Source of the DNA: Candidatus Forterrea multitransposorum CG_2015-17_Forterrea_25_41
GTDB lineage: Archaea; Iainarchaeota; Iainarchaeia; Iainarchaeales; CSSED10-239
Direction of reading: 5' to 3'
NCBI GenBank assembly: GCA_009392915.1
Contig: CP045477.1
Coordinates: forward strand, 768,001-832,000
Length of the DNA: 64,000 nt
Positions 13,901-45,996 of this stretch are shown here, in pieces. The translations under genes and the position numbers were made by a program. The notes below the pieces were generated by a model. The model searched no databases, was not told where the DNA came from, and saw nothing but the letters and a program-made list of their open reading frames with translations. Numbering within the stretch: position 1 is the stretch's first letter; each line of letters starts with the position of its first letter.

Positions 13901-14487
13901 TGTAATTCTTTAATTTCTTGATTTACTTTTGATAAATAACTTTCATTTTCTATTTGTTTTTTCATAAAATTAATATTATCATTTAATAATATATAATCTT
14001 GAAATATTTCTTCTTCAGGAATTAGGTTAACTTCTTGCTGTTCTAAAAATAAGGTATAATCAATAATAAGATACATGCTTTTTTTAGTTGCATTATCAAC
14101 ATATGAAAAGGTTTTAGAAAAAAGGTCCATTACATCATTATAATTATCTAAAATTGTTTTGATGTTCTCTTTTCTACACCCTTCATTCAATAAATCTAGT
14201 TCTTTTTTAGTAAGTGTATAATAATAATGACTGGATGCTAAGTAATTTTTATAAGTATCTATATTTTGACTTAAAGAAAGAGGTATTTTGTTATTTTTTT
14301 CAATAGATAATTTTTCAATTTCAGTAAAACATTTATTTTGAGAAGTACAATCATCAATAGAAGTAGAGGAATAATGAGTTAAAGCAAGACAAGCTTGCTT
14401 TTCTCTAGTGGTTATAAATTCAAGGCAACCTGAAAGGCTTACTAGTAAAATCAATAAAAAATATATGTATATTTTTTTATCAATCAA
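10999..14487 (-). CDS. Giant (1162 aa) coiled-coil surface protein. It has a signal peptide with a lipobox-like LSGC, an N-terminal Cys-rich region, and a C-terminal TM segment plus basic tail.
   Basis: Extremely E/K/N/I-rich heptad-like sequence throughout. C-terminus ILITIIVVLFVSLYAYLRLGNKKKEK. Confidence 0.4.
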   Translation of the reverse strand: MIDKKIYIYFLLILLVSLSGCLEFITTREKQACLALTHYSSTSIDDCTSQNKCFTEIEKLSIEKNNKIPLSLSQNIDTYKNYLASSHYYYTLTKKELDLLNEGCRKENIKTILDNYNDVMDLFSKTFSYVDNATKKSMYLIIDYTLFLEQQEVNLIPEEEIFQDYILLNDNINFMKKQIENESYLSKVNQEIKELHVYSKELGFRETYLAKENVSDLTLYYLQIYEKEINSQEINLPEILRINNFVYKKLSNIEDLRNINYNLDKLDGYNFYILMDKLVGKEKSLVTEFIIINNRITENLDVIYNKIEDYQKEIEKNKEYLTTEKYNYYLKQKNYFENKTITFGKYLSELKEINLEILQNQEIVEKEKLENSQLFACDILVENLEEQSNLYISRLISQYKESDNLLEKLNYCEKIKNANEIQNCQELIYSVIESEIEEVKDYELYIYSTEEDCLEHINNINYKLESNEKIIIIKKRIKEIENKINEIYVENKLEENYEIISEIEKDVKEIKQKNNVELIININENQEKINNIEREIDLIIKKIIQENKNYTIKKIDDKYYFELINNFSEIILNIEIENNYLNLVSKDPGLLINKTQIKIHTIYPGKNYFLVDYENNKNINYEIIYLSLKESIIKITIENEVEGIYDSLLFIDGFISKNEDVIIEENNIYYYTKKENEFYVYGPVFENNLSKNIEEISSDKFITTTNISLKNKFFEKINQKLIIKETKENEINTFYKNNKEITLFEENGNLIYNIEIKKDEVLEFVLKTLIEKNKVYEEIREIILAAEELRNTRFLDIQKESIKELKYLLDKPYSEEYSINEIETIYSYYNTLQKLLEKNKHYQIIEENYLITLNEIYQKELTSFEENKLEKIESNKYQNMVLAEKDLIQLLIDIKKREKDLQNDTKSLEIAEFKELNEIINENNLENIDLDLLSKDKNITEIKDIINQKLKEKAEELYYYINPITNNLEEDKINEIITKTYLLYETYTLTDLYSIGYFSGITENDAKRLEKNYAFLESVLFNKELSNFDEKYNEKDYKGALNAISLETINRIEKIKSDYDNLTSGLIEIKDDAKKEIIDYQKKEYDVETLNFAKTNYDDEKYLDVIYVLKQTNPVSKNSTKTQYILITIIVVLFVSLYAYLRLGNKKKEKTIAEKKKKILRH

Positions 14488-19213: not shown

Positions 19214-20551
19214 TTGTTTTATATATTTTTCTATATTATATATTTTGGAGTACTCATGGCTAAATCTAAAAAATCAGAAACTAATAAAACTAATGAAGTG
19301 AAAATAGTTTCTCAAACAATCTCTGATGAGATTTTAGATCAAGAAAAGATATTAGTCGTATGTGTAGATAGAGATAATGATATTGGTCAAAAAATTAATG
19401 TTACTGGTCCAATCATTGGTTTTAAAAATAATGTAAAGGTTGTTACTAATTTTGGAATTGCAGATCCTGAAGATTCAGATGCAAATTGTATTTTTGGTGG
19501 TTTGAAAGTTTATAAAAAATTAGAAAGTAATACTGATGTTGAAATTGTAACATTAACAGGACATTCAAAAGAAAATATTTTATTTTCTGATAAAAATATA
19601 GCTAATCAATTAAAACAAGTATTGTCTGTTTATCCTGCAACAGGTGTTGTTTTTGTAAGTGATGGTGCAGAAGATGATCAAGTAATTCCATTAATTCAAA
19701 ATTTTGTACCTATAATTTCTAAAGAAACAGTAATTGTTAGACAATCTAAAAGTTTAGAAAGTACCTTTTATACAATAAAAAGAGCTTTAAAAGATCCTTT
19801 TTTTGCAAGAGTTGTTTATGGTGTTCCTGCAATTGCTTTATTGTTATTTGTTTTCTTTAGGGCTTATGCTTTACAGATTGTTGCTTTTTTACTAGGAATG
19901 TATTTTTTAGTAAAAGGTTTTAGTTTAGATAAAAAAATAATTTCTTTTTTTAAAAATGTTACAAATAAATTTTCAATATACAGGATAAGTCTTCCTTTTT
20001 ATCTTGCATTTATTTTCTTTTTAATCTTTGCAATTATTAAAGGATTAAATCTTTATTATCAAAATCAATATTTTGATTATTTGTTTATTATTGTTTCTTC
20101 TATTAGATCTGTACTTTTACAAATAGTTATTGCTTTTGTACTTTTAGTTATAGGTTCAATAATTGATTTATTCTATTTGAAAAAAATGTTTAATTTAGGT
20201 AAAAATATTTTTGCTTTGTTTTTTATAATTATATTTTCAATAATTGTTGATTTTGCTTTACAATTTATAATTCAAGATATAAATATTTCATTCTTTTTAT
20301 TAGTGGTAATCTTTGGATCAATCCTTTTAGTTTTAGTAAGTAGATTTACTGTTCTATTTGATGTGAACTTTAAAGTTAGTCCTCTTTTAGTCGGGCTTTC
20401 AGTCTATTCTAAGTATGGTTTGTTTTTAGGAGAAGTAACTGGTGTAGATGATAAGAGAAAAGTTTTAAGATATAAGGAAAAGAACACTGAAAAAGTAAAA
20501 ACTATTTCTGAAAAGAACTTTGTTTTAGAAAATGGTACTATTCTAATCTAA
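19214..20551 (+). CDS. Polytopic membrane protein with an N-terminal soluble domain (DUF373-like?)
   Basis: About 150 aa of polar sequence followed by at least 6 hydrophobic segments. Confidence 0.35.
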   Translation: MFYIFFYIIYFGVLMAKSKKSETNKTNEVKIVSQTISDEILDQEKILVVCVDRDNDIGQKINVTGPIIGFKNNVKVVTNFGIADPEDSDANCIFGGLKVYKKLESNTDVEIVTLTGHSKENILFSDKNIANQLKQVLSVYPATGVVFVSDGAEDDQVIPLIQNFVPIISKETVIVRQSKSLESTFYTIKRALKDPFFARVVYGVPAIALLLFVFFRAYALQIVAFLLGMYFLVKGFSLDKKIISFFKNVTNKFSIYRISLPFYLAFIFFLIFAIIKGLNLYYQNQYFDYLFIIVSSIRSVLLQIVIAFVLLVIGSIIDLFYLKKMFNLGKNIFALFFIIIFSIIVDFALQFIIQDINISFFLLVVIFGSILLVLVSRFTVLFDVNFKVSPLLVGLSVYSKYGLFLGEVTGVDDKRKVLRYKEKNTEKVKTISEKNFVLENGTILI

Positions 20552-25307: not shown

Positions 25308-28300
25308 TTAAAAAAAGTTAGATAAAGATTTCTGTTTCATTTCTTCTTTATCAACAAACAGAGAATTAATATCTTCTTCAGCTAGAATTACTTTCTGATA
25401 AAGATAAGGTTTTAATTCATATTTTTTAATTAAGTTTTTTGCAACTTCTAAATATTTTTTAATAGAACCTTCATGTATTGTCATTACAAGTTTACCTGAA
25501 CAATTAAGACAAATACCAGAAAGAGGAATTCTTCTATACTTAGAATTACATTTAATACATCTTAGTCCTTGACGAGCAAAAGCTCTGGTGTTACCAATAA
25601 TGTCTGGGAATAAGTGATAGTGTAATAATCTTTCAAGAGCATCTTTATTATCTACTGCTCTTATCTTTTTTTGAAGTTCTGCTTGTCTATCAACTTTATC
25701 TTGCATAGATTTAATTGTAAGGTAAGCACTCATTTTTGGTCCTTCATCAAAAATAGAAGTATCATGTGTAAACTTCATACAAGTATATTGATCTTCAGTT
25801 CCTAGATAATCAGAAACATATTTTAAATTTTTATCATCAGCATCTAAAAATCTTTTAGAGTTTTGATAAAATTCAAAAGGATATTCTGTAGCTGTTTCAA
25901 TTTCATAACACTCATCATCAATTTCATAAGGGTTAACAACAGTTGTAAAAGCAATAGGTGCATCCATTCTTCCACCTCTACCTTTACTTAAATATTTAGG
26001 TGAAAAATTTAATAATGCATCCATTAAAAGCATTATTGAGTCTTGATCTCCATCTACATTTCTTCTTTTAGCTGTAATAAAAAAAGGATGTCCAAAACAA
26101 AGTCTTGCTTTTGAAAAACCTAATATTCTTCCTACAATTCCAGCTGATGTGTGTGGTGCAAGACCAATTACAAGTTCACCAATTAATTCTTCTTTGTCTT
26201 TAAAATTAAAATATTTTTCTTTTTTATAAAATTTTTCTAAAAGATCATCAATAAATCTTGTAATTTTTAAAAAATATTCAGCAGTGTGATCTGAAATAAT
26301 TATGTCTTGTGGAAAAAGATCAATTATTTGATTTTCATCTTTTATTTCTTTTCCTTGATAATCTATAACATAACCTAGTTCTTTAACTTTTTCAACAGTT
26401 AGGTTAAGTTCTTTAGGTTTAAATTGAGTGATGGTTGCATTTAATGCTTCATATCTAATTGTTCCATCTCTAAAAACATAAAGTCCGTGTTTACTTCTTA
26501 ATATTCCTTTTTCAAGAGCTTCTGTATATTTTTCTTGACTTGCAAGTTCTTTAAAACCTTTTAAAGTCTCAGGCACACCAACACCAAGATTATTAATTGC
26601 TTTTTTAATAAGGTCATCTAAATTTACTTTATTATTTATTTTTGCTCTTCCTTCTTCATTACATACAGGACAAGTTTTATTAAAACTAATTTTTTTACAA
26701 CTATAACATTCATATAGTTCTTTAGTTCTTTGATCACACTCTAAGCAGTAAGGTGTAAACATTATTTTTTTACAACTTTCACATTGATATCCTTTGACTT
26801 TAATATCCATGCTTCCAGAATAGTTTTTCTTAGAATCAATTGTTTTTAATAGATCTCTATTGTTTCCAAAACCTTCTCCAACAGGAAAAATAGTTGCACT
26901 TTTACCTGGCAAAATTCTTTCGTGTGCAGCTTCTGGTCTTCCCATTCTTGCTCCAATAAAACTTCCTGCTTTTTCATTTATTTTTAATTTTGAAATTATT
27001 GTTAATTTTTCAACAATTGTTTTTTGTTTATCTTCTAAAACTTCTTTAAATTCTTCAAGAGGATTTGTTGCATTAAGTGCACCAAGAGTTTTTAAAAAAG
27101 GATATGCTATTTCTTTTTCAAGTAATATTTTATTTTCTTCTAGAAGATATTTATGTTCAACACCTATTTTTTCTAAAATACTTTTTATAACATTATTTGT
27201 TTTTATTTTTGCACCAATAATTTTATCTTCTAAAAATATTTTTTCTGCAGTTCTAAATTTTTCAATAAGTATTTTTAGTTCTTCATTATCAAGAAGTGAA
27301 TAATAGGCAATGTATTTTGGATATAAAGAAACTTTATACTTTAAACTTAAACTAATTGCTTTATAAGGATCTGGGTTTTTATAAAATTCATACAGATTTT
27401 CAAAATCATCTTCTGTTATTTCTTCTTTTCTTAAAAGATATTTCATTTCAGAAAGCCATTCTTCTTCAACATATCCTGCTTTAATTAAAGGATGTCCACT
27501 TTTTTTAAAGTCTCCAATATTAATTAAAATATCTCCTAAAAAAAGTATTTTTTCTATTGATTCTCTATGTTTTAAAGCTTCTTTAACATTATTAATTTTA
27601 ATTACATCTTTATTTTTTAATCTTACAATTGGACCTTCGATACTATCACATGGAAAATACTGTAAAGACTTTCCTGGTCTTTCAATTCTGCCGTGTGTTC
27701 CAACTGCTATAAATTCTTCTAAAATATACATGGTTGCAGGGTTTATTGCTTTTGCCATAAGCCCAGTTGTTCTTGTTTTACCATACCTAAGTCTAAATCC
27801 TCCAGGTACTAAAGGGTATGAGAAAACTGGTCTTCCTGCTGCAAGTCCTTCTAGATATTTTGTTGAAGGTTTAAGTTCAAAAGAACCTTCTGAGGTTTTT
27901 TTAACTTTAATTAATTTTTCAAGCCAAGACCAATCAAGTCCTAATACTTTACTTGTTTTTAATATTTTCATGGCTCTAACATAAACACCATCAATCATTA
28001 CAAGACACATTGCACCTCTTACTCTGTTTGTTTTAATTCTTTCAAGATCTCTGTTTACCATTAATTCAACATCACTATCAGGACCACTATTAATACACAC
28101 AGGGCAATTTTCTGCAATTACTCTTATTTCATCTTCAGTAACTCTTTGTTGTCTAACAACAACATCTGATTGATAAATCATATTTTCTTCAATTAATCTA
28201 TCAACTTCTTGTTTTGAAGGTTTATATCTATCTAGATGTAGTTTTTTTCTTGCAAGGTCTGCAAGAAGTACAGGTAAGGTTTGTGCATTTCCTCCTGCAG

Positions 28301-28754
28301 CTCTAATAGGTCCTGCAAAATAAATATCAGGATATTTTGAACCATCTGGATTTGTTGAAATTTTTATTTCTGGAAGTCCATCTAAGGGAGAAACAACAAC
28401 TCCGTCTGTTTGAATAACTAAAGCAGTTCTAATTGCTTGTTCTAATCTTTTTTCTGGATCTTCAATTCCACCTAAAGTCCCATCTAAAATTTGATTAAAT
28501 ATATCTAAAGTAACTTTAAATCTATCATGGTTATGTACTTCCCATAGATCATGATATATTTTAGAAACTCCTTTTGGTCCAACTAAAATTTCTGTTTTTT
28601 CAGCAATACCTTGTGCAGGAAATGTTTCTATGTCTGTATCAATATCTCTTCCAGTCTTTCTTGCATCTTTTGCAACATCAACTTGATTATTTATCTTTTC
28701 TGTGAGTTTTTCAAAATATTGAGAAACATCTTTTCTTGCAATTATTTTTATCAT
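25308..28754 (-). CDS. polC: DNA polymerase II (PolD) large subunit DP2; no intein
   Basis: Length and multiple conserved DP2 blocks, including the C-terminal zinc cluster CIKCNSKYRRIPLSGICLNCSG. Confidence 0.9.
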   Translation of the reverse strand: MIKIIARKDVSQYFEKLTEKINNQVDVAKDARKTGRDIDTDIETFPAQGIAEKTEILVGPKGVSKIYHDLWEVHNHDRFKVTLDIFNQILDGTLGGIEDPEKRLEQAIRTALVIQTDGVVVSPLDGLPEIKISTNPDGSKYPDIYFAGPIRAAGGNAQTLPVLLADLARKKLHLDRYKPSKQEVDRLIEENMIYQSDVVVRQQRVTEDEIRVIAENCPVCINSGPDSDVELMVNRDLERIKTNRVRGAMCLVMIDGVYVRAMKILKTSKVLGLDWSWLEKLIKVKKTSEGSFELKPSTKYLEGLAAGRPVFSYPLVPGGFRLRYGKTRTTGLMAKAINPATMYILEEFIAVGTHGRIERPGKSLQYFPCDSIEGPIVRLKNKDVIKINNVKEALKHRESIEKILFLGDILINIGDFKKSGHPLIKAGYVEEEWLSEMKYLLRKEEITEDDFENLYEFYKNPDPYKAISLSLKYKVSLYPKYIAYYSLLDNEELKILIEKFRTAEKIFLEDKIIGAKIKTNNVIKSILEKIGVEHKYLLEENKILLEKEIAYPFLKTLGALNATNPLEEFKEVLEDKQKTIVEKLTIISKLKINEKAGSFIGARMGRPEAAHERILPGKSATIFPVGEGFGNNRDLLKTIDSKKNYSGSMDIKVKGYQCESCKKIMFTPYCLECDQRTKELYECYSCKKISFNKTCPVCNEEGRAKINNKVNLDDLIKKAINNLGVGVPETLKGFKELASQEKYTEALEKGILRSKHGLYVFRDGTIRYEALNATITQFKPKELNLTVEKVKELGYVIDYQGKEIKDENQIIDLFPQDIIISDHTAEYFLKITRFIDDLLEKFYKKEKYFNFKDKEELIGELVIGLAPHTSAGIVGRILGFSKARLCFGHPFFITAKRRNVDGDQDSIMLLMDALLNFSPKYLSKGRGGRMDAPIAFTTVVNPYEIDDECYEIETATEYPFEFYQNSKRFLDADDKNLKYVSDYLGTEDQYTCMKFTHDTSIFDEGPKMSAYLTIKSMQDKVDRQAELQKKIRAVDNKDALERLLHYHLFPDIIGNTRAFARQGLRCIKCNSKYRRIPLSGICLNCSGKLVMTIHEGSIKKYLEVAKNLIKKYELKPYLYQKVILAEEDINSLFVDKEEMKQKSLSNFF

Positions 28755-28769
28755 TTAATATTCTCTTTT

Positions 28770-30197
28770 TCAAATTTCTTTTTCTAAAAAATCTTTTATT
28801 AAAAGTTCTTCTGTTTTTAAATTAAATAAAAGCGCTTTTGAAACTGTTGGAATATGTCCTAACTCTTTTTGAAAATCTGTCATGTCTTGCCAACAAGATG
28901 ATGCTATTAAGTGTACATGCTTATATTTAGAATATGCATGATGATGAACATCTGCAGTTATAAAAATATCTGGTACTTCTTCAATAACCATTAGATTTTT
29001 TTCAATAGGTACAAATGTTTGTCTATGACCATATTGTGGCATTAAATCTCTTCTTTTCAAAACTTCTATCATTGCTGTATCTGGTTTATCCATTTTTGCA
29101 TTTTTAATTTCTGTGTAAATTCCATGAAGTGAAGCTCCATGATACATTAATGTTTTAAACCCTTCAATAACAACCCAAGCAGGAGATCCTAAGATGTGAA
29201 TATTTTCTTTTTCATAAAGTCTTGGAAGATATTCTTTTGTAATTGCAGGTTGTGGGTCTGATAATCTTACTGCATCATGATTTCCAGAAATAATAAATAT
29301 TTCAATATCTTCTCTAATTTTTAAAATATATTCTTCAAACAATTCATATTGTTTTTTAATATCTGTAATTGCAAGTTCATTAAACTGTGAGGGATAAACT
29401 CCGATACCATCAACTAAATCTCCAGCAATAATTAAATATTTTATTTTTTTAGTAAGTTCTTTTTCTTCTTCAAAATTACCATTTAACCATTCTATAAATT
29501 TTAAAAATTCTTTTTCTTTAAATTTTTTAGATCCTACATGCACATCTCCAATTATTGTAAGATAAACATCTTGAGGTAGGTTGTGTGTTTTTCTTTCAAA
29601 AGGAATATCTGGATAAATTACTTCATTTACAATTAACATATCTTTTGAAAGTAAAGATGTTTTAAAACCTAAAACATTATCTAAAAGAATTTCTTTGTGT
29701 TTAAAGAATTCATTTTCATCTTTATTCATGATTACAAGTTTTATTTGACCTGTAGGATCATCAATTGTTAAAATTAAATTTCCGTTTTTACTAATTCCTT
29801 TATCATAAACCATCCCAATAACATCAGCTGGTTTTCCTTTAACAAGTAATCTTGCTTGTTCAATTGTTGTGTATTCAAAATTAGGTCTTGTTTTAATCAT
29901 TTTAGATATTTTTTCATATTTGTCTAAAAATAGTTTATGGAAGTCTTCAATACTTCCTTGTGAATAGTTTTTACCAGTTATATCATACTTATCTAAAATA
30001 TAAAAATTTTTAAAATATTTTTTATCTTCTTTTTGATTCTTAACATCAAGAATATCTTTTTCTTTAACAATAAATAAGTTTTTTTCTTTAAGTTTATTTA
30101 AAATTTCTTTATAGTTATCACTAGACAGATGTTTTAATGTCTCAGGTGTAAGAATTAAATTATTTTCTTTTGCATATTTTATGATTTCATTATCCAT
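28770..30197 (-). CDS. polB: DNA polymerase II (PolD) small subunit DP1 (calcineurin-like phosphoesterase)
   Basis: GDVHVGS, ISGNHD and related phosphoesterase motifs. Adjacent to DP2. Confidence 0.85.
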   Translation of the reverse strand: MDNEIIKYAKENNLILTPETLKHLSSDNYKEILNKLKEKNLFIVKEKDILDVKNQKEDKKYFKNFYILDKYDITGKNYSQGSIEDFHKLFLDKYEKISKMIKTRPNFEYTTIEQARLLVKGKPADVIGMVYDKGISKNGNLILTIDDPTGQIKLVIMNKDENEFFKHKEILLDNVLGFKTSLLSKDMLIVNEVIYPDIPFERKTHNLPQDVYLTIIGDVHVGSKKFKEKEFLKFIEWLNGNFEEEKELTKKIKYLIIAGDLVDGIGVYPSQFNELAITDIKKQYELFEEYILKIREDIEIFIISGNHDAVRLSDPQPAITKEYLPRLYEKENIHILGSPAWVVIEGFKTLMYHGASLHGIYTEIKNAKMDKPDTAMIEVLKRRDLMPQYGHRQTFVPIEKNLMVIEEVPDIFITADVHHHAYSKYKHVHLIASSCWQDMTDFQKELGHIPTVSKALLFNLKTEELLIKDFLEKEI

Positions 30198-30561: not shown

Positions 30562-31755
30562 ATGTTGTTTCTAATTAAAATCAAAAGGTTTTTATTCTTT
30601 TTAAATAATGTTTTATGTATGATTTCTTTAAATTATAAATCTATCTCACCTTTAATTTCTGTAATTTTATTAATTGTTGTATCTATTGCTTTTATAGGTG
30701 TAATTACCAATTGGAGTAAAAGTTTTGTTATAACGAATTCAGAAAAAGTAGATTTAATAAAAACAAATAATTCTTTAGATCAATTTATTGTTATAGATTC
30801 TTTTTATGATTCTGAAGAAAATTCAAGTATTATTTTAAAAAATAACGCTAATAAAAATATTGTGCTTGAAAATTATAAATTTATAAACGGGGAAGGTGAG
30901 TTTTATAATCAAGAATTTGTAATTTCTGGAGATGATGTTTTAAATAAAGGTAATTTATTAAAAATAGATTTAATTTGCTTTCCATCAAATAATTTAGATA
31001 TTCTTTTTAAAACAACAGATGGAGATTATTTTAAAGTTAATTTAAAAAAATCTATTTTAAATATAAATTATTGTCATAATGATTTTAAAAATCAAAAAGT
31101 ATATTCTTTTGAAGAATTGTTAGAAAAGAATCTTTTAGATGTAAATAGTTATTATTTAGATGTAAATGGAGATTTAAATTTACCTGAAATAGATGATTTT
31201 ATTATAAAAACAAAATTTAAATTAGATTCAGTCTCTGGCTATCAAACATTAATTTCATATAAATATTCTGGTGTTTCAGGTTATGGTTCAGGACAAAGAG
31301 GTGGATTTAAATTTATGGTTCTTCCAAGCGGTAATTTTGCAATTGTAGGTAGTCAAAATGGTGGTTCTTTATGGTGGGGTTATTCTGGAGGAGATCCTGG
31401 ACAAACACCCCCTTTAGTTTCAAATAAGTATTATGATTTAATTTATCATAAAAATGGTCGTTTAATTAATTTGTGTCTTAAAGATAATATAGATTATAAT
31501 TCTTTTTTTTGTAACGAACCTTGGTATTATCCTTATTATGATATTACAAACATCTATTATAGTGACAATCCAACATATAATTATAAATCAATAATTGGTG
31601 CTACAAATTATGGTTTAGAAAATACTTTTTTAGATTATTTTAATGGATCTGTTGAATATATTGAATTGTATGAATATTCTGAAGATAATAATATATCTTC
31701 AGTAAACAACCTTCCTTTAAATAATTATATTTTTAAAATAGATTTAACAAAATAA
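30562..31755 (+). CDS. Archaeal type IV pilin-like protein with a class III signal peptide. The likely start is MISLNYKSISPLIS...
   Basis: YKSISPLISVILLIVVSIAF matches the archaeal prepilin N-terminal consensus (K/R-G/S-ISPLIATVLLI). Confidence 0.6.
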   Translation: MLFLIKIKRFLFFLNNVLCMISLNYKSISPLISVILLIVVSIAFIGVITNWSKSFVITNSEKVDLIKTNNSLDQFIVIDSFYDSEENSSIILKNNANKNIVLENYKFINGEGEFYNQEFVISGDDVLNKGNLLKIDLICFPSNNLDILFKTTDGDYFKVNLKKSILNINYCHNDFKNQKVYSFEELLEKNLLDVNSYYLDVNGDLNLPEIDDFIIKTKFKLDSVSGYQTLISYKYSGVSGYGSGQRGGFKFMVLPSGNFAIVGSQNGGSLWWGYSGGDPGQTPPLVSNKYYDLIYHKNGRLINLCLKDNIDYNSFFCNEPWYYPYYDITNIYYSDNPTYNYKSIIGATNYGLENTFLDYFNGSVEYIELYEYSEDNNISSVNNLPLNNYIFKIDLTK

Positions 31756-31762
31756 GTTTAAT

Positions 31763-32626
31763 TTAAAATTTTTTATCTAAAATTTCTTTTAAAGTGATGT
31801 TTGGGTACCCTTCCATTTTTCCACCAAAACTTGGGTAGACTAATATTTTTTTATCAGGGTTTTCATCCATTAGTTTTTCTATGATTTTTTTTTGTTCATC
31901 ATAAGATTGATGTTGGTTAAATAAAAAGATGATTACATTTGCAAGTGTTTTTATTGCAACAACAGCTTGTTTTTCAATAAAGTTCATGTCTTTAAAATCT
32001 TCATGAATAAGCCCTGGTGTATCGACTACTTGAATTATTTCTTCTCTTTTTTTATAATATCCAAAATTTAAAGTTTTAGTTGTGAAAGAATAACTATTAA
32101 TTTCAGGATCTGCGGTCGTAATTTCTGCAAGCAAAGTTGTTTTTCCTGTATTTGGAGCTCCAACTAAAACAACAGTAAATAGTTTTTGAGGGTTTGGTAT
32201 TGCTCTAAAATATTTTCCATATCCCATTAATATTTCATTAGTACCATCTAACTTTTTAAGCATTGATTTTATTCTTCCTAAATATTCTTTTTTTAATTTT
32301 AGTTTATCTGTATATTTTTTTTCTCTTTTTACAAATCTTTTATATTTTTCAGAAATGGAATTTATTAAATGAATTGTTGTAATATAGTGATTTTTATATT
32401 TATCTAAAACTTTTTCTTGAACAATATTTTTTGACATTAATAAATAGTATTCATCCATTTTTGAATAATCTGGAAGTGATGAATATATATGTGTAAGTCT
32501 ATCTGCAATTTTATTATGCACAAAATTAACATAGTAAAGCACATCTTTTTGATTATATTCTTTTTTTATTTTATTTACTATAATTTCTAAAAAAGAATCT
32601 GCTTTAATAATTTCTGGGAATTTCAT
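31763..32626 (-). CDS. NOG1-family (Obg-like) GTPase
   Basis: G1 motif VLVGAPNTGKTTLL, G2 FTTKTLNFGY, G3 DTPG. N-terminal NOG1-N-like helical region. Confidence 0.55.
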   Translation of the reverse strand: MKFPEIIKADSFLEIIVNKIKKEYNQKDVLYYVNFVHNKIADRLTHIYSSLPDYSKMDEYYLLMSKNIVQEKVLDKYKNHYITTIHLINSISEKYKRFVKREKKYTDKLKLKKEYLGRIKSMLKKLDGTNEILMGYGKYFRAIPNPQKLFTVVLVGAPNTGKTTLLAEITTADPEINSYSFTTKTLNFGYYKKREEIIQVVDTPGLIHEDFKDMNFIEKQAVVAIKTLANVIIFLFNQHQSYDEQKKIIEKLMDENPDKKILVYPSFGGKMEGYPNITLKEILDKKF

Positions 32627-32788: not shown

Positions 32789-35122
32789 ATGTTTGCTATT
32801 TCAAAAAAAGGAATAAGTCCTTTAATTGTAACTATTTTAATTGTTGTTGTAATAGTCATTATTGTGTCTGTTTTATTATTGTGGGGTAAATCTTTCACTT
32901 TAGATAATTTATCTCTTTCTGAAAGAGTTTTTGAAAAATCTAGTCTTTCTGATTTTGTTTGGCAAGATAATTTATTTGAAAAAAATTTATTTATTAAAAA
33001 TACAAATTCTAAATTAGGTGCGTCAATTATTGGTTATAAAATAAATAGTTCCTTAGATTATCCTTTTTTAAATGAATATAGATACTTAGAAACTGAAGTT
33101 TATTTGGGAAAAAACAGTATTGCAACAATTCCTTTAGTTTGTATTCCTGAGAAAAATTTTACAATAGAATTAATTACTTCCAAAGATGAGTATATTACTG
33201 TGCCTGTTACTTCAAAGTCTTTTGATGCAAGTGATTGTACTTTTAAAGGAGAAATTACAAATCCTTCTGAAGATTTTAGTATAAGGTCTGGAGATTCTAT
33301 TTTGTTTGACTCTTTGGCATTAAATACTTCTGGGAATGAAACTTATTTATGGGTATCTGATAAAGATGGAACTTTAAGTACTGATAAAAATTTTACAATA
33401 AGTTCTTTATCTGTAAACAATCATTTAATTACTTTAACAATCACAGATTTTAATTCAACTATTGAAAAATCTTTGTCTGTTGTGATTCATCCTCCTTTAA
33501 GTTTAAGTATTTTATCTCCAATTGATGATTCTGGTTTTTTAGTAAACACCTCTATTGATTTTAATTCAATTATTGATAATAATTTAGGTGATTATTCTTG
33601 TAATTGGCAATCAAATCTTGATGGTTTGTTAAGCACCAATTGTATTTTTAATTCTTCAAGTTTATCTGTGGGTAATCACACTTTAACTTTAAATGTAATT
33701 GATGATGTAGGAACTAGTAGTGTTACTTCTGATATTTTAGTTAAGAATAGTTTTACACCAATCATTAGTTCTCCTTTAGAAGATTCTATTTTTGTAGTAG
33801 GAAATAACATAAATTTAATTGGTACAACAATTAATTCTTTTGGAACTTATACTTGTTCTTGGGATTCAAATATTAATGGAAGTTTAGGTACTGGTTGTAA
33901 TTTAAATGTTGATGATCTAAACATAGGTGCTCATGAAATAACTTTAAATATAACAGATGATTTAGAAACAAAAACTGCAGTAACAACTATTGTAATTAAA
34001 GATCATTTACTTCCAGAAATAGTATCTCCTATTGCAAGTTCTACTTCAACAGAAGGAAATACAGTTAATTTTTTAGGGAGTGCAACTAATACATATGGAA
34101 GTTACACTTGTTCTTGGGATTCAAATCTTGATGGAAATTTAGGTGTTGGTTGTGATATAGATGTTTCTGATTTAACTTTAGGAACTCATGAAATAACTTT
34201 AAGTGTAACTGATGATTTAGAAACTGTTTCAATTTCTCAAATTAATTCTGTGATTGTTATTGTGTATGTTGATGATTTAATTAATTTAGTTTTCAGTGAT
34301 AGTGTTACAGGTTATTCTTTTTCTGGTAGTACTTATAATTATAATGATTTATTAATTTTAAATAGTTCTAATACTGTAACTGTTACTCCGACTGGGGCTG
34401 GAACAATAACTGTAAATGGTTCTACTGTTTCCTCAGGTTCTCCATCAAGTCCTATTGATTTAAGTGATGGTACTGAAAAAACAATTACCATAGAAGTTAG
34501 TGATGTTGATAAGTATTCTAAAACTTATACTTTGAGATTAACTAAAATAGTAACTACTGGTGGAACCATAACTAATGGTACAGGTTATAGAATTCATAAA
34601 TTTACTTCAAATGGATCATTTACCTCTAACATCCCATTAACTGCTGAACTTTTAGTTATTGGTGGAGGTGGAGGTGGTGGTGGATATGATGGTGGTGGTG
34701 GTCGTGCCGGAGCGTTATATTATAGTGCATCTTATTCAATACCTTCAGGTTCAACAAATGTTGTAATTGGTGCTGGAGGTCTAGGTGTAAATTATACAAA
34801 AGGATCAGCAGGTACTGCTTCTTCTTTTGGAGCAATATCTAAAGCTGGAGGTGCTGGTGGGGCTTTAACAAGTCCTAAATCTGGTGGTGCAGGTTGTGGT
34901 GGTGGAGGAAGTGCCTTTAATGCAGGACTGGGTTATGGTCTTGAAGGTCCTGGTTGTACATATAGTATTACAGGAACTCCTGTTGTATATGGTCTAGGAG
35001 GAAGAGGAGGTAATGGAGGGAGAACAGATGGTGCTACAAACACAGGATCAGCAGGTTGGGCTGGCGGAACTAGAGGTGGTCATGGTGCTGATGGAGTTGT
35101 AATTGTTAGAATAAATTCTTAG
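32789..35122 (+). CDS. Large type IV pilin-like adhesin. It has a class III signal peptide, four ~90 aa Ig/PKD-like repeats and a C-terminal glycine-rich module.
   Basis: N-terminus KKGISPLIVTILIVVVIV. Repeats share the motif YTCSWDSN..G.LG.GC...V.DL..G.HEITL.VTDD. The C-terminus is about 40% Gly (LLVIGGGGGGGGYDGGGGRAG ... GADGVVIVRINS). Confidence 0.6.
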   Translation: MFAISKKGISPLIVTILIVVVIVIIVSVLLLWGKSFTLDNLSLSERVFEKSSLSDFVWQDNLFEKNLFIKNTNSKLGASIIGYKINSSLDYPFLNEYRYLETEVYLGKNSIATIPLVCIPEKNFTIELITSKDEYITVPVTSKSFDASDCTFKGEITNPSEDFSIRSGDSILFDSLALNTSGNETYLWVSDKDGTLSTDKNFTISSLSVNNHLITLTITDFNSTIEKSLSVVIHPPLSLSILSPIDDSGFLVNTSIDFNSIIDNNLGDYSCNWQSNLDGLLSTNCIFNSSSLSVGNHTLTLNVIDDVGTSSVTSDILVKNSFTPIISSPLEDSIFVVGNNINLIGTTINSFGTYTCSWDSNINGSLGTGCNLNVDDLNIGAHEITLNITDDLETKTAVTTIVIKDHLLPEIVSPIASSTSTEGNTVNFLGSATNTYGSYTCSWDSNLDGNLGVGCDIDVSDLTLGTHEITLSVTDDLETVSISQINSVIVIVYVDDLINLVFSDSVTGYSFSGSTYNYNDLLILNSSNTVTVTPTGAGTITVNGSTVSSGSPSSPIDLSDGTEKTITIEVSDVDKYSKTYTLRLTKIVTTGGTITNGTGYRIHKFTSNGSFTSNIPLTAELLVIGGGGGGGGYDGGGGRAGALYYSASYSIPSGSTNVVIGAGGLGVNYTKGSAGTASSFGAISKAGGAGGALTSPKSGGAGCGGGGSAFNAGLGYGLEGPGCTYSITGTPVVYGLGGRGGNGGRTDGATNTGSAGWAGGTRGGHGADGVVIVRINS
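33490..34270 (+). repeat. Intragenic tandem repeats of ~270 bp with high nucleotide identity between adjacent units
   Basis: Near-identical runs at 33851 and 34107 (tacttgttcttgggattcaaat...catgaaataactttaa...gatgatttagaaac). Confidence 0.6.
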
Positions 35123-35285: not shown

Positions 35286-36356
35286 ATGAAATTTTTTACA
35301 AATAAAAACTATTCTAAAATGATAATTATACCTTTAGTTATTTTAATAATATTTATTTTAATTGCATTTATTTTTCCAGGTATTGAAAGAGGTATTGATC
35401 TTAAAGGAGGAAATCAAATAATCGTACACTATCCTCAAGAAAAAGATTACACTTCTTTAGAAACTGCTCTTGTCGAAAAATATAATATTTCTCAAATACA
35501 AGTAAATGAAGTTAAAAGTATAAATGAATATGGACTTTTAATTGAATTCTCTCTACAACAAGATCTTGAAACTGCTAAAGCAGAAAGATCAAAATTAGAT
35601 TTTACAAAAGATTTAGAAATTTTAAAACAAGATTCTATTGTTCTATTAACTCCTTTAAAGGAAAGAGGTTTTTTAACAGAAAATGATTTAACTTCTATTC
35701 AACAAATAAATAACAAAGATGAATTAAGTTCAAAAGTTTCAGAAAACATAAGTCTTGCAAATAATAGTTTTTATAATCAAGTTACAAATCTTGTTAAATC
35801 AGAATTAGATTTAGCAGAAGATGCAAAAATACAAACTAGAGAAATCGCACCTACTTTAGGAAAAGATTTTGTAAATAGTTCTGTAAAGGTAGGAATTGTT
35901 GCATTTTCATTATTATTAATTGTTATTCTTTTATTCTTCAGAGAGATTGTTCCATCAGGATTAATTATTTTTGCTGTTATTTTTGATGTGTTTGCAGCTC
36001 TTGCAGGTATGGCTTTATTTAATATACCTTTAAGTTTAACCACAATTCCTGCTCTCTTAATGCTTATTGGATACTCTGTTGATACAGATATTCTTTTAAC
36101 AACAAGAATTTTAAAAGATGGTAATAGAAATCCAATTGATTCAGCAAATTCTTCAATTGCAACTGGGCTTACCATGACTTTTACAACAATGGCAACTATT
36201 CTTGTAATGCTTATAATTTCTTATTTTGCACAGATGTTTATTATCTTAGAAATTTCTGTAATATTATTATGTGGTCTTGTTGGTGATGTAATTTCTACAT
36301 GGCTTTTCAATGCACCTGCATTAATTAAATATGCAAAAAGGAAACATAAAAATTAA
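35286..36356 (+). CDS. secF: Protein-export membrane protein SecF
   Basis: N-terminal TM segment, then GIDLKGG, then a C-terminal 5-6 TM RND-like domain (IPALLMLIGYSVDTDILL). Confidence 0.65.
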   Translation: MKFFTNKNYSKMIIIPLVILIIFILIAFIFPGIERGIDLKGGNQIIVHYPQEKDYTSLETALVEKYNISQIQVNEVKSINEYGLLIEFSLQQDLETAKAERSKLDFTKDLEILKQDSIVLLTPLKERGFLTENDLTSIQQINNKDELSSKVSENISLANNSFYNQVTNLVKSELDLAEDAKIQTREIAPTLGKDFVNSSVKVGIVAFSLLLIVILLFFREIVPSGLIIFAVIFDVFAALAGMALFNIPLSLTTIPALLMLIGYSVDTDILLTTRILKDGNRNPIDSANSSIATGLTMTFTTMATILVMLIISYFAQMFIILEISVILLCGLVGDVISTWLFNAPALIKYAKRKHKN

Positions 36357-36376: not shown

Positions 36377-38008
36377 ATGAGAACATTAATAAAAAAACCA
36401 ATAATTATTTTTTGGATTATTTTAATAATCATATCTTTAGTTTTACTTTTAACTAATGGTTTAAAATTTGGAGTTGACTTTAGTGGTGGAACTGCTTTTC
36501 AAGTAGTTTTAGAAGAATCAGTATCTTCTGAAGAACTAGCACAAGCTGCATCTATTTTAGGTAGAAGACTTGATTGGTCTGGTTCAAAAGATGCAAGAGT
36601 AACTCCTTCTGGAAGTCAATATATAACTATACAGATTGCTGAATCTGATCCTGATGAAATTGCAAGTTTAAGAAGCGCAATTTTAAAACAAGGAAATTTT
36701 GAAGCAGTTTTAAATGGGGATGTTTTATTTTCAGGTGAAGATATAAAATCAATCTATAAAGATCCTTCTAGAGGTTATGGAATTTCAGAAGTTTCAAAAG
36801 GTGTTGACTATCAATGGTCTCTTCCGTTTTTATTATCTCCTGATTCTGCAAAAAGATTTGCAGAAATGACTTTCCATAAATGTACTCCTACTGGAATTTC
36901 TTCTGGTTCTTTAGATGAAAGATATGAATGTGATAAAACATATTTCTTTGTTGACAGACCAGTAGATAGTATAATATTAATAGATAACTTAACTTTTACA
37001 GAAGAAAAAGAAGTTCCTGTAATACCTGGACTTTATTCTTCTTTCTTTCCAATTGAAGATCTTTTAGATCAAGTAACTTCTCCGTATTATGTTATTGATG
37101 GAAATTTATCTGCAGAAGATGTTTCAAGTTTAACAAAAGACTTAGAAAATTATTCTAAAGTAATTGTTTCTCCAGGAATAACTAATAACGATGTAAATTC
37201 TTTAAAAGAACTTGGTTTTAAAGTAATCTCTATTGAAAAACAAGAAAACCTTCCATGGATTTGGAGTGTTACAGGTTTAAAATCTGTAATTTCTATAACT
37301 CCTGGAATTGCAAACATGGATGTTTCAAGTATGGAATCTTCAAGATTTCAAACTTTTTCTCAACTTAATATTACAGGACATGCAGAATCATTAGAAGCTT
37401 CTCAAGCAAGACTTGATGATTTATTATTAATTTTAGAATCAGGTTCTCTTCCTATTGCAATTGACAGTATAAGTACAGAATCAATATCTCCATTTTTAGG
37501 AAAGCAATTTTTAAATACATCTTTGCTTATTGGTTTGTTTGCTATTCTTACTGTTGCAGTTGTTTTATTTATAAGATATAAAAGATTTAGTTTAGCTGCA
37601 CCAATTATCTTAACAGCCTCAAGTGAAATTTTAATTCTTTTAGGAATACTTTCTCTTATGAGTTTTAGACTTGACTTAGCTGCTGTTGCTGGTATTTTAG
37701 CAACTATTGGAACTGGTGTTGATGATAATATTATTATCATTGATGAACTTTTAAGAGGCAAGAAAAAAGATGAGCATGAACATCATGAAAGTCTTTTAAA
37801 GAAAATTAAGAAAGCTTTCTTTATTATGTTTGCTGCTGCTGCAACTGCTGCTGCAACAATGTTCCCAATCATTTTCTTTAGTTTAGGTCTTGGAAAATTA
37901 GTTGGTTTTGCTGTAACTATTTTAATTGGTACTGCAATAGGTGTATTTTTAGTAAGACCAGTTTATGCACAGATTGCAAGAAAAATAGTTGCTGAAGAAG
38001 GAAAATAA
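36377..38008 (+). CDS. secD: Protein-export membrane protein SecD
   Basis: GVDFSGG, a large periplasmic domain and a C-terminal 6-TM domain (AGILATIGTGVDDNIII). Follows secF, as in archaeal secFD operons. Confidence 0.65.
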   Translation: MRTLIKKPIIIFWIILIIISLVLLLTNGLKFGVDFSGGTAFQVVLEESVSSEELAQAASILGRRLDWSGSKDARVTPSGSQYITIQIAESDPDEIASLRSAILKQGNFEAVLNGDVLFSGEDIKSIYKDPSRGYGISEVSKGVDYQWSLPFLLSPDSAKRFAEMTFHKCTPTGISSGSLDERYECDKTYFFVDRPVDSIILIDNLTFTEEKEVPVIPGLYSSFFPIEDLLDQVTSPYYVIDGNLSAEDVSSLTKDLENYSKVIVSPGITNNDVNSLKELGFKVISIEKQENLPWIWSVTGLKSVISITPGIANMDVSSMESSRFQTFSQLNITGHAESLEASQARLDDLLLILESGSLPIAIDSISTESISPFLGKQFLNTSLLIGLFAILTVAVVLFIRYKRFSLAAPIILTASSEILILLGILSLMSFRLDLAAVAGILATIGTGVDDNIIIIDELLRGKKKDEHEHHESLLKKIKKAFFIMFAAAATAAATMFPIIFFSLGLGKLVGFAVTILIGTAIGVFLVRPVYAQIARKIVAEEGK

Positions 38009-38022
38009 TTTTTCCTTTTTTC

Positions 38023-38454
38023 TTATTTTTTAAGTGTTTTAAGTATTAGATAAAGTATAACTAACCCCATTGCAAACCAAAAGAGTATGTGTGCTATTTT
38101 TGAAACACTTAAGCTTATCTTTTCTGCAAGTAAAACTAAAACTATTCTTAAAAAGTTAGCTATCCATAGCAAAAGAACACTCAAAAGTATCCACTTAATT
38201 TTACTATTTTTATTTAATGTTATTTTTGATGAGATTATTATTCCTAGATAAACAGAAATGCTAATTACTCCGCTGCATATTGGTACAAAAATAAAAGGTT
38301 CATAATTTAAGAAGTCTCCAAAAATACTTCTTATTAAATATTCCCATAGATTAATCAATGGAGTTGCAATTGTTTTAAGAAATATAAAACTTAATAAAGT
38401 GTATATTATTGTAAAATAAATAATGAAATTAATTGTTTTTTTATCTAGGTGCAT
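38023..38454 (-). CDS. Exosortase/archaeosortase-family membrane protein, unusually short (143 aa)
   Basis: Active-site-like Cys in FVPICSGVIS within a TM segment and Arg in WIANFLRIVL, matching the Cys/Arg signature of the family. Confidence is limited by the short length. Confidence 0.4.
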   Translation of the reverse strand: MHLDKKTINFIIYFTIIYTLLSFIFLKTIATPLINLWEYLIRSIFGDFLNYEPFIFVPICSGVISISVYLGIIISSKITLNKNSKIKWILLSVLLLWIANFLRIVLVLLAEKISLSVSKIAHILFWFAMGLVILYLILKTLKK

Positions 38455-38516
38455 ATAGTTAATTTACTATCAAAGAGATTATAAATATTTATCTTTATAA
38501 AATATTATAATTGAAA

Positions 38517-39206
38517 TTAAACAATTAGAATATATATTAAAATAGATAAAGCACCAGCTATAAAAGTTGCAAGAAAATTAGTTTGATTATTATTAAAGAT
38601 TCCTCTTCTCTCAATTGTTGCACCTATATAACTATCAACAATAGATCCTAATATTCCACCAATAAATAAAACTATTAAAAATGTAAAAGTATAACCTACA
38701 ATATAAAAATAAACTACAGAAATAAAAGATGCAATCATTGCACCTGTGATCCCAAGAAAAGTAATTCCACCATCTTCTCCTTTTTTAACTTTTTTAAAAT
38801 TAGTAATAAGTCTTGGAGTTATGTTTGAAAGTTTTCCAATCTCTGAAGAAAAAGTGTCTGAAAAAGCAGCATTTATTGAAACTATACTTGCAAGAATAAA
38901 TAATGAATAATCTAAAAAGTTTAATTTATCAAAAATAAAACCAATTATTACAAATATTACTGCTGCTGAACAATTTCCAATAATGTTTAAGTAATTTCTT
39001 TTTTCATGTTTTTTATTAAGTATTAAAGTTATACCTTCTGCTATTGCGAAAAATACAATTACATATGCAACTGCATAGATATTAATAAAGTAAAGAATTA
39101 TACTTAAGAGTGCATAAATTAAAGAAATAGTAAAAAGATCGTATCCTCTTAATAGATGTAAGAAGATACCAATCAAAATAAATACTAGAAAATATAAAAA
39201 AAGCAT
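38517..39206 (-). CDS. DUF92/TMEM19-family integral membrane protein
   Basis: AFSDTFSSEIGKLS and GGITFLGITGA match the DUF92 blocks (ADTwASEIG ... GgvT..G). Confidence 0.55.
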   Translation of the reverse strand: MLFLYFLVFILIGIFLHLLRGYDLFTISLIYALLSIILYFINIYAVAYVIVFFAIAEGITLILNKKHEKRNYLNIIGNCSAAVIFVIIGFIFDKLNFLDYSLFILASIVSINAAFSDTFSSEIGKLSNITPRLITNFKKVKKGEDGGITFLGITGAMIASFISVVYFYIVGYTFTFLIVLFIGGILGSIVDSYIGATIERRGIFNNNQTNFLATFIAGALSILIYILIV

Positions 39207-44009: not shown

Positions 44010-44939
44010 ATGATCAATTTTAAAATAAAAAATATACCTATAAGAAAAAAAGGAGTTTTAGCTCCTATGCAAGAGTATACTCATCTTCCATTTAGACTTC
44101 TTTGCAAAGATTATGATGTAGGTTTATGTTATACAGAGATGGTGAATATAAATCACATTATTCAATATAAAGAAGATTTATCTAAATTAGATCTTTTAGC
44201 ATCTACTGAAAAAGAATCTCCTGTATCTTTACAGTTGTTTGGAGATTTAAGTTTAAAAAAAACAATTACTGCTGCTCATTTAATTGATAATTATAAATAT
44301 TTTGATATTATTGATTTTAATTTAGGTTGTCCTTCTTTAAAAATAATTAATAGTAAGTCAGGTTCTTATAATTTAAAGCAATTAGATAAAGTTTATCCAA
44401 TAATTAAAGAAATTGTTTCTACTTCTAAAAAACCAATTACTGTAAAGGTAAGACTTGGTTTTAAAGAAGATATTTTAGAGGATATGATTAATAATTTTGA
44501 AAAGATTGGTGTTTCTGCAATTGCTGTTCATGGTAGACTTGCAAAAGAAAATTATAGTGTTCCATCAAAAATTTCAAGAGTTGAGGAAATTAAAAAAATT
44601 ACTTCACTTCCAATAATTTATAATGGAGATGTTAATGAAACAAATCTTGGACATGTGAATAAGTTTTCTGGAATTATGGTTGGCAGAGAAGCTTTAGGCA
44701 ATCCTTTTATCTTTAAGCAAATAGATTATTTTTCAAAAAATAATGTTCTTTTAGAAAAAGATTATTCTGATGAAGCTTTATTATCTTTTTTAGAATATGT
44801 TAAAGAATATCCAATTTCTTTTTCTAAACTAAAAGTATCTTTAATTCCTTTTTTTAAAGGTAAACAAGGTTCTGCAAGAATAAGAGAATTATTATCCAAA
44901 TCTAAAAATCTTAAAGAAATATTAAATATATTAAAATAG
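44010..44939 (+). CDS. dus: tRNA-dihydrouridine synthase
   Basis: LAPMQEYTHLPFR, DFNLGCP, flavin-binding TIM-barrel pattern. Confidence 0.75.
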   Translation: MINFKIKNIPIRKKGVLAPMQEYTHLPFRLLCKDYDVGLCYTEMVNINHIIQYKEDLSKLDLLASTEKESPVSLQLFGDLSLKKTITAAHLIDNYKYFDIIDFNLGCPSLKIINSKSGSYNLKQLDKVYPIIKEIVSTSKKPITVKVRLGFKEDILEDMINNFEKIGVSAIAVHGRLAKENYSVPSKISRVEEIKKITSLPIIYNGDVNETNLGHVNKFSGIMVGREALGNPFIFKQIDYFSKNNVLLEKDYSDEALLSFLEYVKEYPISFSKLKVSLIPFFKGKQGSARIRELLSKSKNLKEILNILK

Positions 44940-45645
44940 CTATAAGTATTATCCATAAAATTATTTTGTAATTTTTAATAATTTCTTTAAAAATAAAAAG
45001 TATTCCGTCAATAATTCCCATAAAAAAATCTTTTAAATAACTACCTAATTTTTTATCTTCTTTAACTTCTGAAAAAACTTCTTTAATAAGTTCTATTTTA
45101 GTTTTTTCTTTTTTTGGAATTATTTCAAAATTATTAACGTCTCCAGTAATTGCATCTATCTTAAGTTTAAACTTATCTAGTTTAACTTTCCAATTAGGAA
45201 CATATATTTGTTCAATACCGCTTAAGGAGATTTGATCTTTTAAAACATTGTGCTTATAAACCAAATATTTCATAATTGTTTCTTCAGCTTCTTCTTTTGT
45301 AACAATTTTTTTTTTAAGATTAATCTGAATTTGCTCTGTTTTAGGAGCTTCTAAATTTTCTTTAATGATTGGTTTTGATATTTTAAAAATATCAATAACT
45401 TTTTCATTAATTTGATTATTTATAGAATTAAGTGCAATTTGGTTTGAGATTCTATTAAACTTCTCATTTTTATTAATTAAAATATCGTAGAAACAGACCC
45501 AATAAGGTGTAATAGTAAGATAAAGATTTTCTTTCTTTATCTCATATTTATGACCTTTTTTTTTAAGAGCCGCTTGAAATATATCTAATGCTTGTCTTGG
45601 CTCTAATTTTATTGGAAACCTTTTTTCAGTAACTGTTATTGGCAT
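44911..45645 (-). CDS. Hypothetical protein with a C-terminal TM anchor, translationally coupled to sepF
   Basis: Its start abuts the sepF stop. C-terminal IILWIILIAILIYLIFL. Confidence 0.3.
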   Translation of the reverse strand: MPITVTEKRFPIKLEPRQALDIFQAALKKKGHKYEIKKENLYLTITPYWVCFYDILINKNEKFNRISNQIALNSINNQINEKVIDIFKISKPIIKENLEAPKTEQIQINLKKKIVTKEEAEETIMKYLVYKHNVLKDQISLSGIEQIYVPNWKVKLDKFKLKIDAITGDVNNFEIIPKKEKTKIELIKEVFSEVKEDKKLGSYLKDFFMGIIDGILFIFKEIIKNYKIILWIILIAILIYLIFL

Positions 45646-45996
45646 TTATTTCATTTTTTTAATAATTTTTACTTTTTCTGGTACCAATAATAATTTTGTT
45701 TTAGAAATCATTGCAAGATCTCCACCTTTGTCAGTAACATACATTTTTAATTGTCCAACAAATTGTTTTGCTCTTTGTGGATTTCTTTTAGAAATTCCTT
45801 CTATGTCTAAAATAACAAAGTTTCTTTCTTTTAATTCTTTTATTACAATTTCAACTTCATTATTTGATTGTAAACTAATTGGTTTTACATAGAAATCTAC
45901 ATCTTCTGGTACATCTTCTACATCCATGTTGTTTAAGAAATCGTCAATATCTATTTCTTCTTTTTTACCTGTAAACATTTTATCTAAAAAGGCCAT
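45646..45996 (-). CDS. sepF: Cell division protein SepF homolog
   Basis: FVILDIEGISKRNPQRAKQFVGQLKMYVTDKGGDLAMISKTKLLLVP fits the SepF/DUF552 core. Confidence 0.5.
   Translation of the reverse strand: MAFLDKMFTGKKEEIDIDDFLNNMDVEDVPEDVDFYVKPISLQSNNEVEIVIKELKERNFVILDIEGISKRNPQRAKQFVGQLKMYVTDKGGDLAMISKTKLLLVPEKVKIIKKMK

Follow-up and report, generated by a model that had tools for sequence, protein, structure and literature searches.

The gene and its family

The 64,000-nucleotide stretch of Candidatus Forterrea multitransposorum DNA analysed here (contig CP045477.1, positions 768,001 to 832,000; the window) has a G+C content of 23.9% and contains, between the genes for a DUF92 membrane protein and for SecD, a small open reading frame (ORF) whose product is very likely, as judged from its sequence, a member of the exosortase/archaeosortase superfamily. 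Archaeosortases are membrane enzymes that trim surface proteins and anchor them to lipids. The host belongs to the Iainarchaeota (Diapherotrites, DPANN), and the matches obtained in genome collections are metagenome-assembled genomes labelled 'Candidatus Iainarchaeum' or Diapherotrites. An earlier inspection of the letters of the window (the sequence-only reading) had drawn attention to this ORF (the sortase gene in what follows) for a Cys in the context FVPICSGV and an Arg in the context ANFLRIV, and both are present, in residues 56–63 (Cys60) and 99–105 (Arg103), respectively; the distance between them is 43 residues, not the approximately 50 then given, and is close to the 41 that separate Cys173 and Arg214 in ArtA of Haloferax volcanii (PMC9263693).

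The resemblance to exosortases and archaeosortases proposed in that reading is borne out by the family model TIGR04178 (exo_archaeo, NCBIfam), against which the window protein scores 32.5 bits (curated cutoff 23, E 7.8e-8), with residues 58–138 aligned to positions 5–92 of the 97 in the model. A Pfam scan of the ORF gave no significant match; PF09721, recorded for the relatives P0035, P0037, P0045 and P0051 and weakly for P0026 and P0039, does not match the window protein. Near-identical proteins have already been named 'exosortase/archaeosortase family protein' by JGI. The members of the family are characterized by a Cys at the start of a transmembrane (TM) helix and an Arg about 40 residues downstream, the arrangement found in Cys60 and Arg103. 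These two residues, together with Gly62 and Asn100, are invariant in the close family (19 sequences) as well as in 68 diverse relatives, and the invariance of the Cys/Arg pair in both sets, taken with the TIGR04178 E-value, places the pattern beyond chance. His122 and Trp126 are invariant in the close family and conserved to at least 90% in the 68-sequence set, whereas Ser61, Glu111, Lys112 and Phe127, also invariant in the close family, lie outside the invariant or at least 90% conserved columns of the larger set; the close-family alignment shows, in addition, conserved Lys residues at the C-terminus.

Among the 68 diverse relatives, TIGR04178 is matched by 65, the ArtD model by 54, the pacearchaeosortase model by 44 and the ArtE model by 36, and all ten relatives examined individually score under the cutoffs of the specific subfamilies. 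On these profile scores, the ORF product is classed here as an unclassified Iainarchaeota branch of the short archaeosortases.

Integrity of the gene and flanking DNA

A search of 5.8 billion proteins retrieved 18 homologues of 52–96% identity, all of 136–146 residues and with N- and C-termini like those of the window protein, and an exhaustive HMMER search (E<=1e-3) found 72 relatives among 1.84e9 cluster representatives, which with few exceptions have 140–215 residues and align over nearly the full query. The ratio of nonsynonymous to synonymous substitution rates (dN/dS) against four orthologues is 0.12–0.37, and the flanking genes are complete on both sides. The spacer towards the DUF92 gene, where the sequence-only reading had suggested looking for a frameshift or additional TM helices, is closed by stop codons in each of the three frames, including an in-frame TAA (38466-38464) four codons 5' of the ATG, and inspection of the three frames revealed no hidden exon, frameshift or extra upstream helices in it. 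The DUF92 gene, directly upstream on the same strand, matches PF01940 up to position 250 of 251, so that no space is left for hidden helices. The ORF is thus very likely an intact gene, under purifying selection and with the appearance of an expressed one, as far as its sequence indicates.

The spacer also contains the A/T-rich, TATA-like boxes TTTATAAAG and ATATTTATAA, approximately 25–47 nucleotides upstream of the sortase ATG, which would be promoter elements of this gene. At the opposite end, the inverted repeat is perfect, with arms of 8 bp, and covers the stop codons of the sortase and secD genes, which converge there, as well as the 14-bp gap between them, and it may form a bidirectional terminator hairpin shared by both (Table 1).

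Table 1. Positions of the sortase gene, of its surroundings in the window and of the paired genes in related contigs
Feature	Position	Strand	Remarks
Short archaeosortase-family gene	38023..38454	-	143 aa, 4 TM; ATG start, TAA stop
Codons of conserved residues	C60 38277-38275; N100 38157-38155; R103 38148-38146; H122 38091-38089	-	
Intergenic spacer, DUF92/sortase gene	38455..38516	-	62 bp; no coding potential
DUF92 / TIGR00297 integral membrane protein gene	38517..39206	-	229 aa, ~7 TM; PF01940 E 1.3e-35
SecD gene	36377..38008	+	PF02355 and Sec_GG matches; convergent with sortase gene, 14-bp gap
SecF gene	35286..36356	+	precedes SecD; PF02355 E 8.6e-32
Inverted repeat AAGGAAAA-ATTA-TTTTCCTT	37998..38017		read from the sequence; putative terminator
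CARDB-like secreted protein	9786..10949	-	387 aa; signal peptide and terminal TM; ends ...ENTAITILLIITVFLFIWIVKI
1162-aa protein, just upstream of the CARDB-like gene	10999..14487	-	lipobox-type signal LLVSLSGC; no Pfam/NCBIfam match
NOG1-like GTPase	31763..32626		
PolD	25308..30197		
Two proteins with class-III signal peptides	32789..35122; 30562..31755	+	
SepF (PF04472), then tail-anchored protein	44911..45996	-	related contigs: L008:262-990; L009:46-1138
Membrane protein, DUF373	19214..20551	+	445 aa; E 2e-84
CarS-sortase pairs of distant relatives	L013:7484-8480; L016:3539-4561; L062:1338-2317; L066:4640-5705; L067:5486-6639; L068:5477-6713; L061:2-762		

Topology and size

Hydropathy identifies four TM-like segments, the approximate number given in the sequence-only reading, and the AlphaFold2 model built from the 19-sequence alignment (mean pLDDT 80) has helices at residues 5–28, 30–45, 57–80, 86–111 and 115–142. 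Lys and Arg are enriched at the N-terminus, in the loop 76–87, which has four Lys, and in the C-terminal KTLKK, and the segment 29–56 is acidic; by the positive-inside rule, this distribution, together with the predicted model, suggests a topology of four TM helices with both termini inside. With Cys60 at the start of TM2, Asn100 and Arg103 in the outer half of TM3 and His122 at the start of TM4, these residues would cluster toward the outer leaflet in the modelled structure, the place at which an exported protein would lose its C-terminal anchor.

The protein is therefore polytopic, as are the other members of the family, although with four TM helices in comparison with the 7–8 of the classical ones. 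The small relatives map to approximately positions 93–238 of the 241-position 8TM_EpsH model, 133–253 of the 261-position XrtA model and 86–205 of the 271-position ArtA model, and this C-terminal mapping indicates that the short proteins correspond to long enzymes reduced to their catalytic core, without the N-terminal three helices or so. The reduced size stressed in the sequence-only reading is real, but it is less exceptional than was supposed, since curated short models exist in NCBIfam: ArtD (150 positions), ArtE (153), pacearchaeosortase (167), and XrtX and XrtY (168 each). The four-TM archaeosortase is consequently a variety already known, and the family of 136–146 residues stands at the low end of its size range.

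Gene neighbourhood

The proximity to secFD described previously is confirmed by the convergent SecD gene, which SecF precedes, and relatives at close and middle distance retain the gene order S15-S3Ae-DUF92-sortase-SecD-SecF. The adjacency of DUF92 and sortase genes is retained in L001–L004 and L007–L012; of the 11 loci that extend far enough, 9 have SecD directly adjacent downstream, and in L010 and L062 a single gene intervenes; SecD is absent from the examined part of L009. Seven distant representatives with 20–30% identity to the window protein (P0033, P0035, P0037, P0039, P0045, P0051 and P0061) extend the comparison; the G+C content, computed for five of the distant-relative contigs, ranges from 27 to 56%. 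In all seven, the sortase gene is immediately preceded by that for CarS (CDP-archaeol synthase, PF01864), with an overlap or a gap of at most 4 bp. An S49 (SppA-like, signal-peptide-peptidase-like) peptidase gene is found near the sortase gene in five of the six distant loci of sufficient length, and this gene and DUF92 are usually located just upstream of the CarS-sortase pair. The larger block reads S15-S3Ae-DUF92-(S49 SppA-like peptidase)-CarS-sortase-SecD-SecF-NOG1-like GTPase-UPF0147-PolD; its segment from S15 through S3Ae, DUF92 and CarS to the sortase gene is seen in the six distant contigs long enough to contain it, and the part from SecD onward is visible in five. The NOG1-like GTPase and PolD are also encoded in the window, and because the window shares the block, its gene is the positional orthologue of the sortase gene of the distant relatives, the clade of the window having lost CarS and SppA from the sortase locus.

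Between SecF and the NOG1-like GTPase, two proteins of the window carry class-III (type IV pilin-like) signal peptides; the one of 777 residues has PKD, cadherin-like and Gly-rich domains, and strain L001, 96% identical, has a different protein in this place, of 506 residues with CHB_HEX_C and Fn3 domains, so that the place looks like a variable slot for surface proteins. Elsewhere in the window, SepF is followed by a protein of 242–244 residues without a signal peptide and with a single C-terminal TM helix, a pairing kept in L001, L003 and L009 (the tail-anchored protein is also found in L007 and L008); this neighbour of SepF may serve the division machinery as a partner in the membrane. A DUF373 membrane protein is encoded in a region rich in membrane proteins.

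Candidate substrates

Potential substrates were sought with a hydropathy filter in the window and eight related loci (L007–L013 and L016), and by eye among the annotated genes of two flank extensions. The only protein of classical architecture that emerged, and one that counts as a lead at most, is the CARDB-like secreted protein, whose C-terminal helix, ...NTAITILIIITIxLFIWIVKI, is nearly invariant in 15 homologues of 39–100% identity. This helix could possibly be the signal of a sortase substrate or, alternatively, the partner in a specific TM-TM interaction, as judged from its conservation. The 1162-residue protein encoded just upstream has a very long region rich in Glu, Lys, Asn and Ile, coiled-coil-like by eye, and a C-terminal TM helix with a Lys-rich tail of 24 residues; with its lipobox-type signal, it would be anchored at both ends. 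The earlier remark on several nearby surface proteins with a C-terminal TM helix and basic residues is only loosely true: within the 64 kb, the CARDB-like protein has 'KI' at the end of its terminal TM helix, and the 1162-residue protein has the basic tail.

Proposed function and alternative explanations

Taken together, these data indicate that the window protein is probably a short four-TM archaeosortase, acting most likely as a membrane-embedded Cys endopeptidase/transpeptidase on exported surface proteins; a Cys-dependent role in C-terminal processing or anchoring is the most probable function, with a confidence that ranges from a little better than even to reasonably good. The proposal derives from the homology with Haloferax ArtA. 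In H. volcanii, ArtA cleaves PGF-CTERM signals and requires Cys173, Arg214 and Arg253 (PMC9263693), and the processing also depends on PssA and PssD; in the published model, the amine of archaetidylethanolamine, a lipid formed from CDP-archaeol, resolves a thioacyl-enzyme intermediate (PMC7157517). By analogy, the window enzyme would recognize a C-terminal membrane-spanning signal on surface proteins exported by Sec and cleave it through a thioacyl intermediate, after which the freed C-terminus would be transferred to a lipid amine. For the window protein, catalysis, the orientation of its active site, the anchoring to lipids and the nature of the substrates are all presumed. The CarS-sortase pair and the SecDF and signal-peptide-peptidase-like neighbours in the relatives fit the lipid-anchoring model of ArtA.

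Several observations weigh against this interpretation. The window protein scores below the cutoff of every specific NCBIfam subfamily (14.7 bits versus 80 for pacearchaeosortase, 21.2 versus 130 for heimdallarchaeosortase and 19.2 versus 170 for XrtX), and the ArtD and ArtE models do not match it at E<=1. Arg253 of ArtA has no mapped equivalent in it, and no solved structure is known for any exosortase or archaeosortase with which it could be compared. CarS is absent from the locus in the clade of the window and from the approximately 84 kb examined, where neither a CarS nor a PssA-type gene occurs among the window proteins scanned with Pfam or among those annotated in the two flank extensions of about 10 kb. 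The adjacency to SecDF and CarS may, moreover, represent inherited gene order rather than functional coupling, since the block also holds ribosomal genes and the replication gene PolD. Regarding the substrates, no NCBIfam CTERM model matches any of the 10 candidate secreted or membrane proteins of the window, in agreement with the sequence-only reading, which had noted no PGF-CTERM-type signal nearby, and no cognate tripartite signal has been demonstrated; the classical substrate layout is found in a single protein of the window, the CARDB-like one. Its tail was not detected on unrelated proteins in two weak tests: a DNA pattern gave 44 matches in metagenome_contigs, one true orthologue and 43 by chance, in a collection that evidently lacks most of the clade, and a tail profile recovered from the 5.8e9-protein database one 50-residue fragment while missing the known orthologues.

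A more extensive version of the archaeosortase interpretation, which is tentative and on balance rather doubtful, takes the window protein as the shortest branch of one orthologous housekeeping four-TM archaeosortase, with a locus S15-S3Ae-DUF92-[SppA]-CarS-sortase-SecDF fixed across a deep DPANN lineage and with translational coupling to CarS. If so, C-terminal lipid anchoring would be tied directly to head-group activation, and the core of approximately 143 residues would be a minimal system for the structure and mechanism of archaeosortases. Since the clade of the window no longer has CarS and SppA at this locus, the enzyme would there need scavenged, host-derived lipids as acceptor, and its signal would be a non-canonical one, for instance the C-terminal helix of the CARDB-like protein.

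The best-surviving alternative, although an unlikely one, is that this sortase-fold protein does not sort by a C-terminal signal but works on membrane lipids or together with them, or serves as an accessory factor associated with Sec or SppA. There is reportedly a precedent in XrtF and XrtG, exosortase relatives that Haft et al. in 2012 are said to have described as marking gene neighbourhoods without an identified target signal. Such a role would agree with the failure of the substrate searches to reveal a cognate signal, with a position beside CarS, DUF92, the S49 peptidase and SecDF that has remained fixed over deep divergence, and with a single-copy, housekeeping-like locus that is not an accessory island of surface proteins. 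However, the genome measures at least 839 kb, of which the searches spanned approximately 84 kb, and the missing signal is therefore weak evidence, whereas the invariant Cys and Arg and the conserved His constitute the protease/transpeptidase signature of the family (PMC9263693).

Less probable again is a dedicated system in which the CARDB-like protein would be the sole substrate, by virtue of its C-terminal helix. It is the only protein of the window with both a signal peptide and a terminal TM helix, and its last 22 alignment columns have a mean pairwise identity of 0.73, compared with 0.52 for the whole protein and approximately 0.4 for the signal peptide; the CARDB-like and sortase families also come from the same kind of samples, span comparable identity ranges (39–100% and 52–96%) and occur together on one contig of 331,976 bp. 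Nevertheless, the two genes are 27 kb apart in the window, the tail has a single Lys and no basic cluster, one segment of the ectodomain is as conserved as the tail, and the conserved TM helix could instead pair with the co-encoded 1162-residue membrane protein.

Finally, the view that the ORF is a pseudogene or the tail of a longer archaeosortase of 7–8 TM helices broken by a frameshift or truncation, as the sequence-only reading had considered possible, and for which only its 432 bp speak, about half the length of artA (912 bp in H. volcanii and 834 bp in M. acetivorans; PMC7157517), deserves hardly any credence and was rejected in view of the homologues that share its length and both ends, the 72 database-wide representatives of similar size, the mere 62 bp available upstream with stops in every frame, the complete neighbouring genes, the dN/dS values and the curated short models.

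The finding is incremental, because automatic pipelines already assign the family. Nevertheless, what is known of the catalytic mechanism comes from the mutagenesis of one enzyme, ArtA, and a naturally minimal version of 143 residues and four TM helices delimits the catalytic core and lends itself well to structural and biochemical work. The pairing with CarS in the relatives, beside SecDF and a signal-peptide-peptidase-like gene, provides independent comparative support for a coupling of export, cleavage and attachment to archaeol lipids. Together, the delimited core and this pairing, conserved in related DPANN genomes, are the most useful by-products of the analysis, which suggests that reduced-genome DPANN archaea keep a dedicated enzyme for anchoring surface proteins even when lipid synthesis genes have been lost from its locus.

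Comparison with known systems

ArtD (TIGR04175) and ArtE (TIGR04124) are, like the window protein, short enzymes of about 150 residues with the same Cys and Arg core; of the specific models, theirs score best on the wider orthologous group, with up to 50 bits for ArtD over nearly its full length. The scores of the relatives are, however, far under the respective cutoffs of 125 and 95, and the window protein itself is matched by neither. The cognate signal of ArtD is PIP-CTERM, of which there was no sign, none of the 10 candidate proteins of the window being matched by a CTERM model. The pacearchaeosortase model (NF033505) likewise describes a small DPANN protein and aligns to residues 16–137 of the window protein and, weakly, to 44 of the 68 relatives; with a score of 14.7 bits against a cutoff of 80 and a different host phylum, here Iainarchaeota, the window protein is not a member. 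The literature searched contained nothing that mentions pacearchaeosortase or links archaeosortases with Iainarchaeota.

With the bacterial exosortases EpsH and XrtA (TIGR02602, 8TM_EpsH, and TIGR03109), the TIGR04178 signature is held in common, and the alignment of the small proteins covers roughly the C-terminal 60% of the models; these proteins differ in lacking the first 90 residues, approximately, or about three TM helices, and in their archaeal context, with no extracellular polysaccharide (EPS) locus.

The clearest functional reference is ArtA (HVO_0915) of H. volcanii, which experiments have shown to be a peptidase required for cleavage at the C-terminus and for lipid anchoring, and which is linked to lipids derived from CDP-archaeol (PMC9263693; PMC7157517). 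Both proteins bear the superfamily signature, with Cys-Arg distances of 41 and 43 residues, but ArtA has approximately 303 residues and more TM helices, in contrast to the 143 residues and four helices of the window protein. ArtA recognizes PGF-CTERM, a signal found in none of the 10 candidate proteins of the window, and its third critical residue, Arg253, has no mapped counterpart in the window family, where His122 is the conserved third residue. The genomic partner differs as well, being CarS or DUF92 for the short family and not PssA or PssD as with ArtA; even so, the link of ArtA to CDP-archaeol lipids has its parallel in the CarS-sortase gene pair of the relatives of the window protein.
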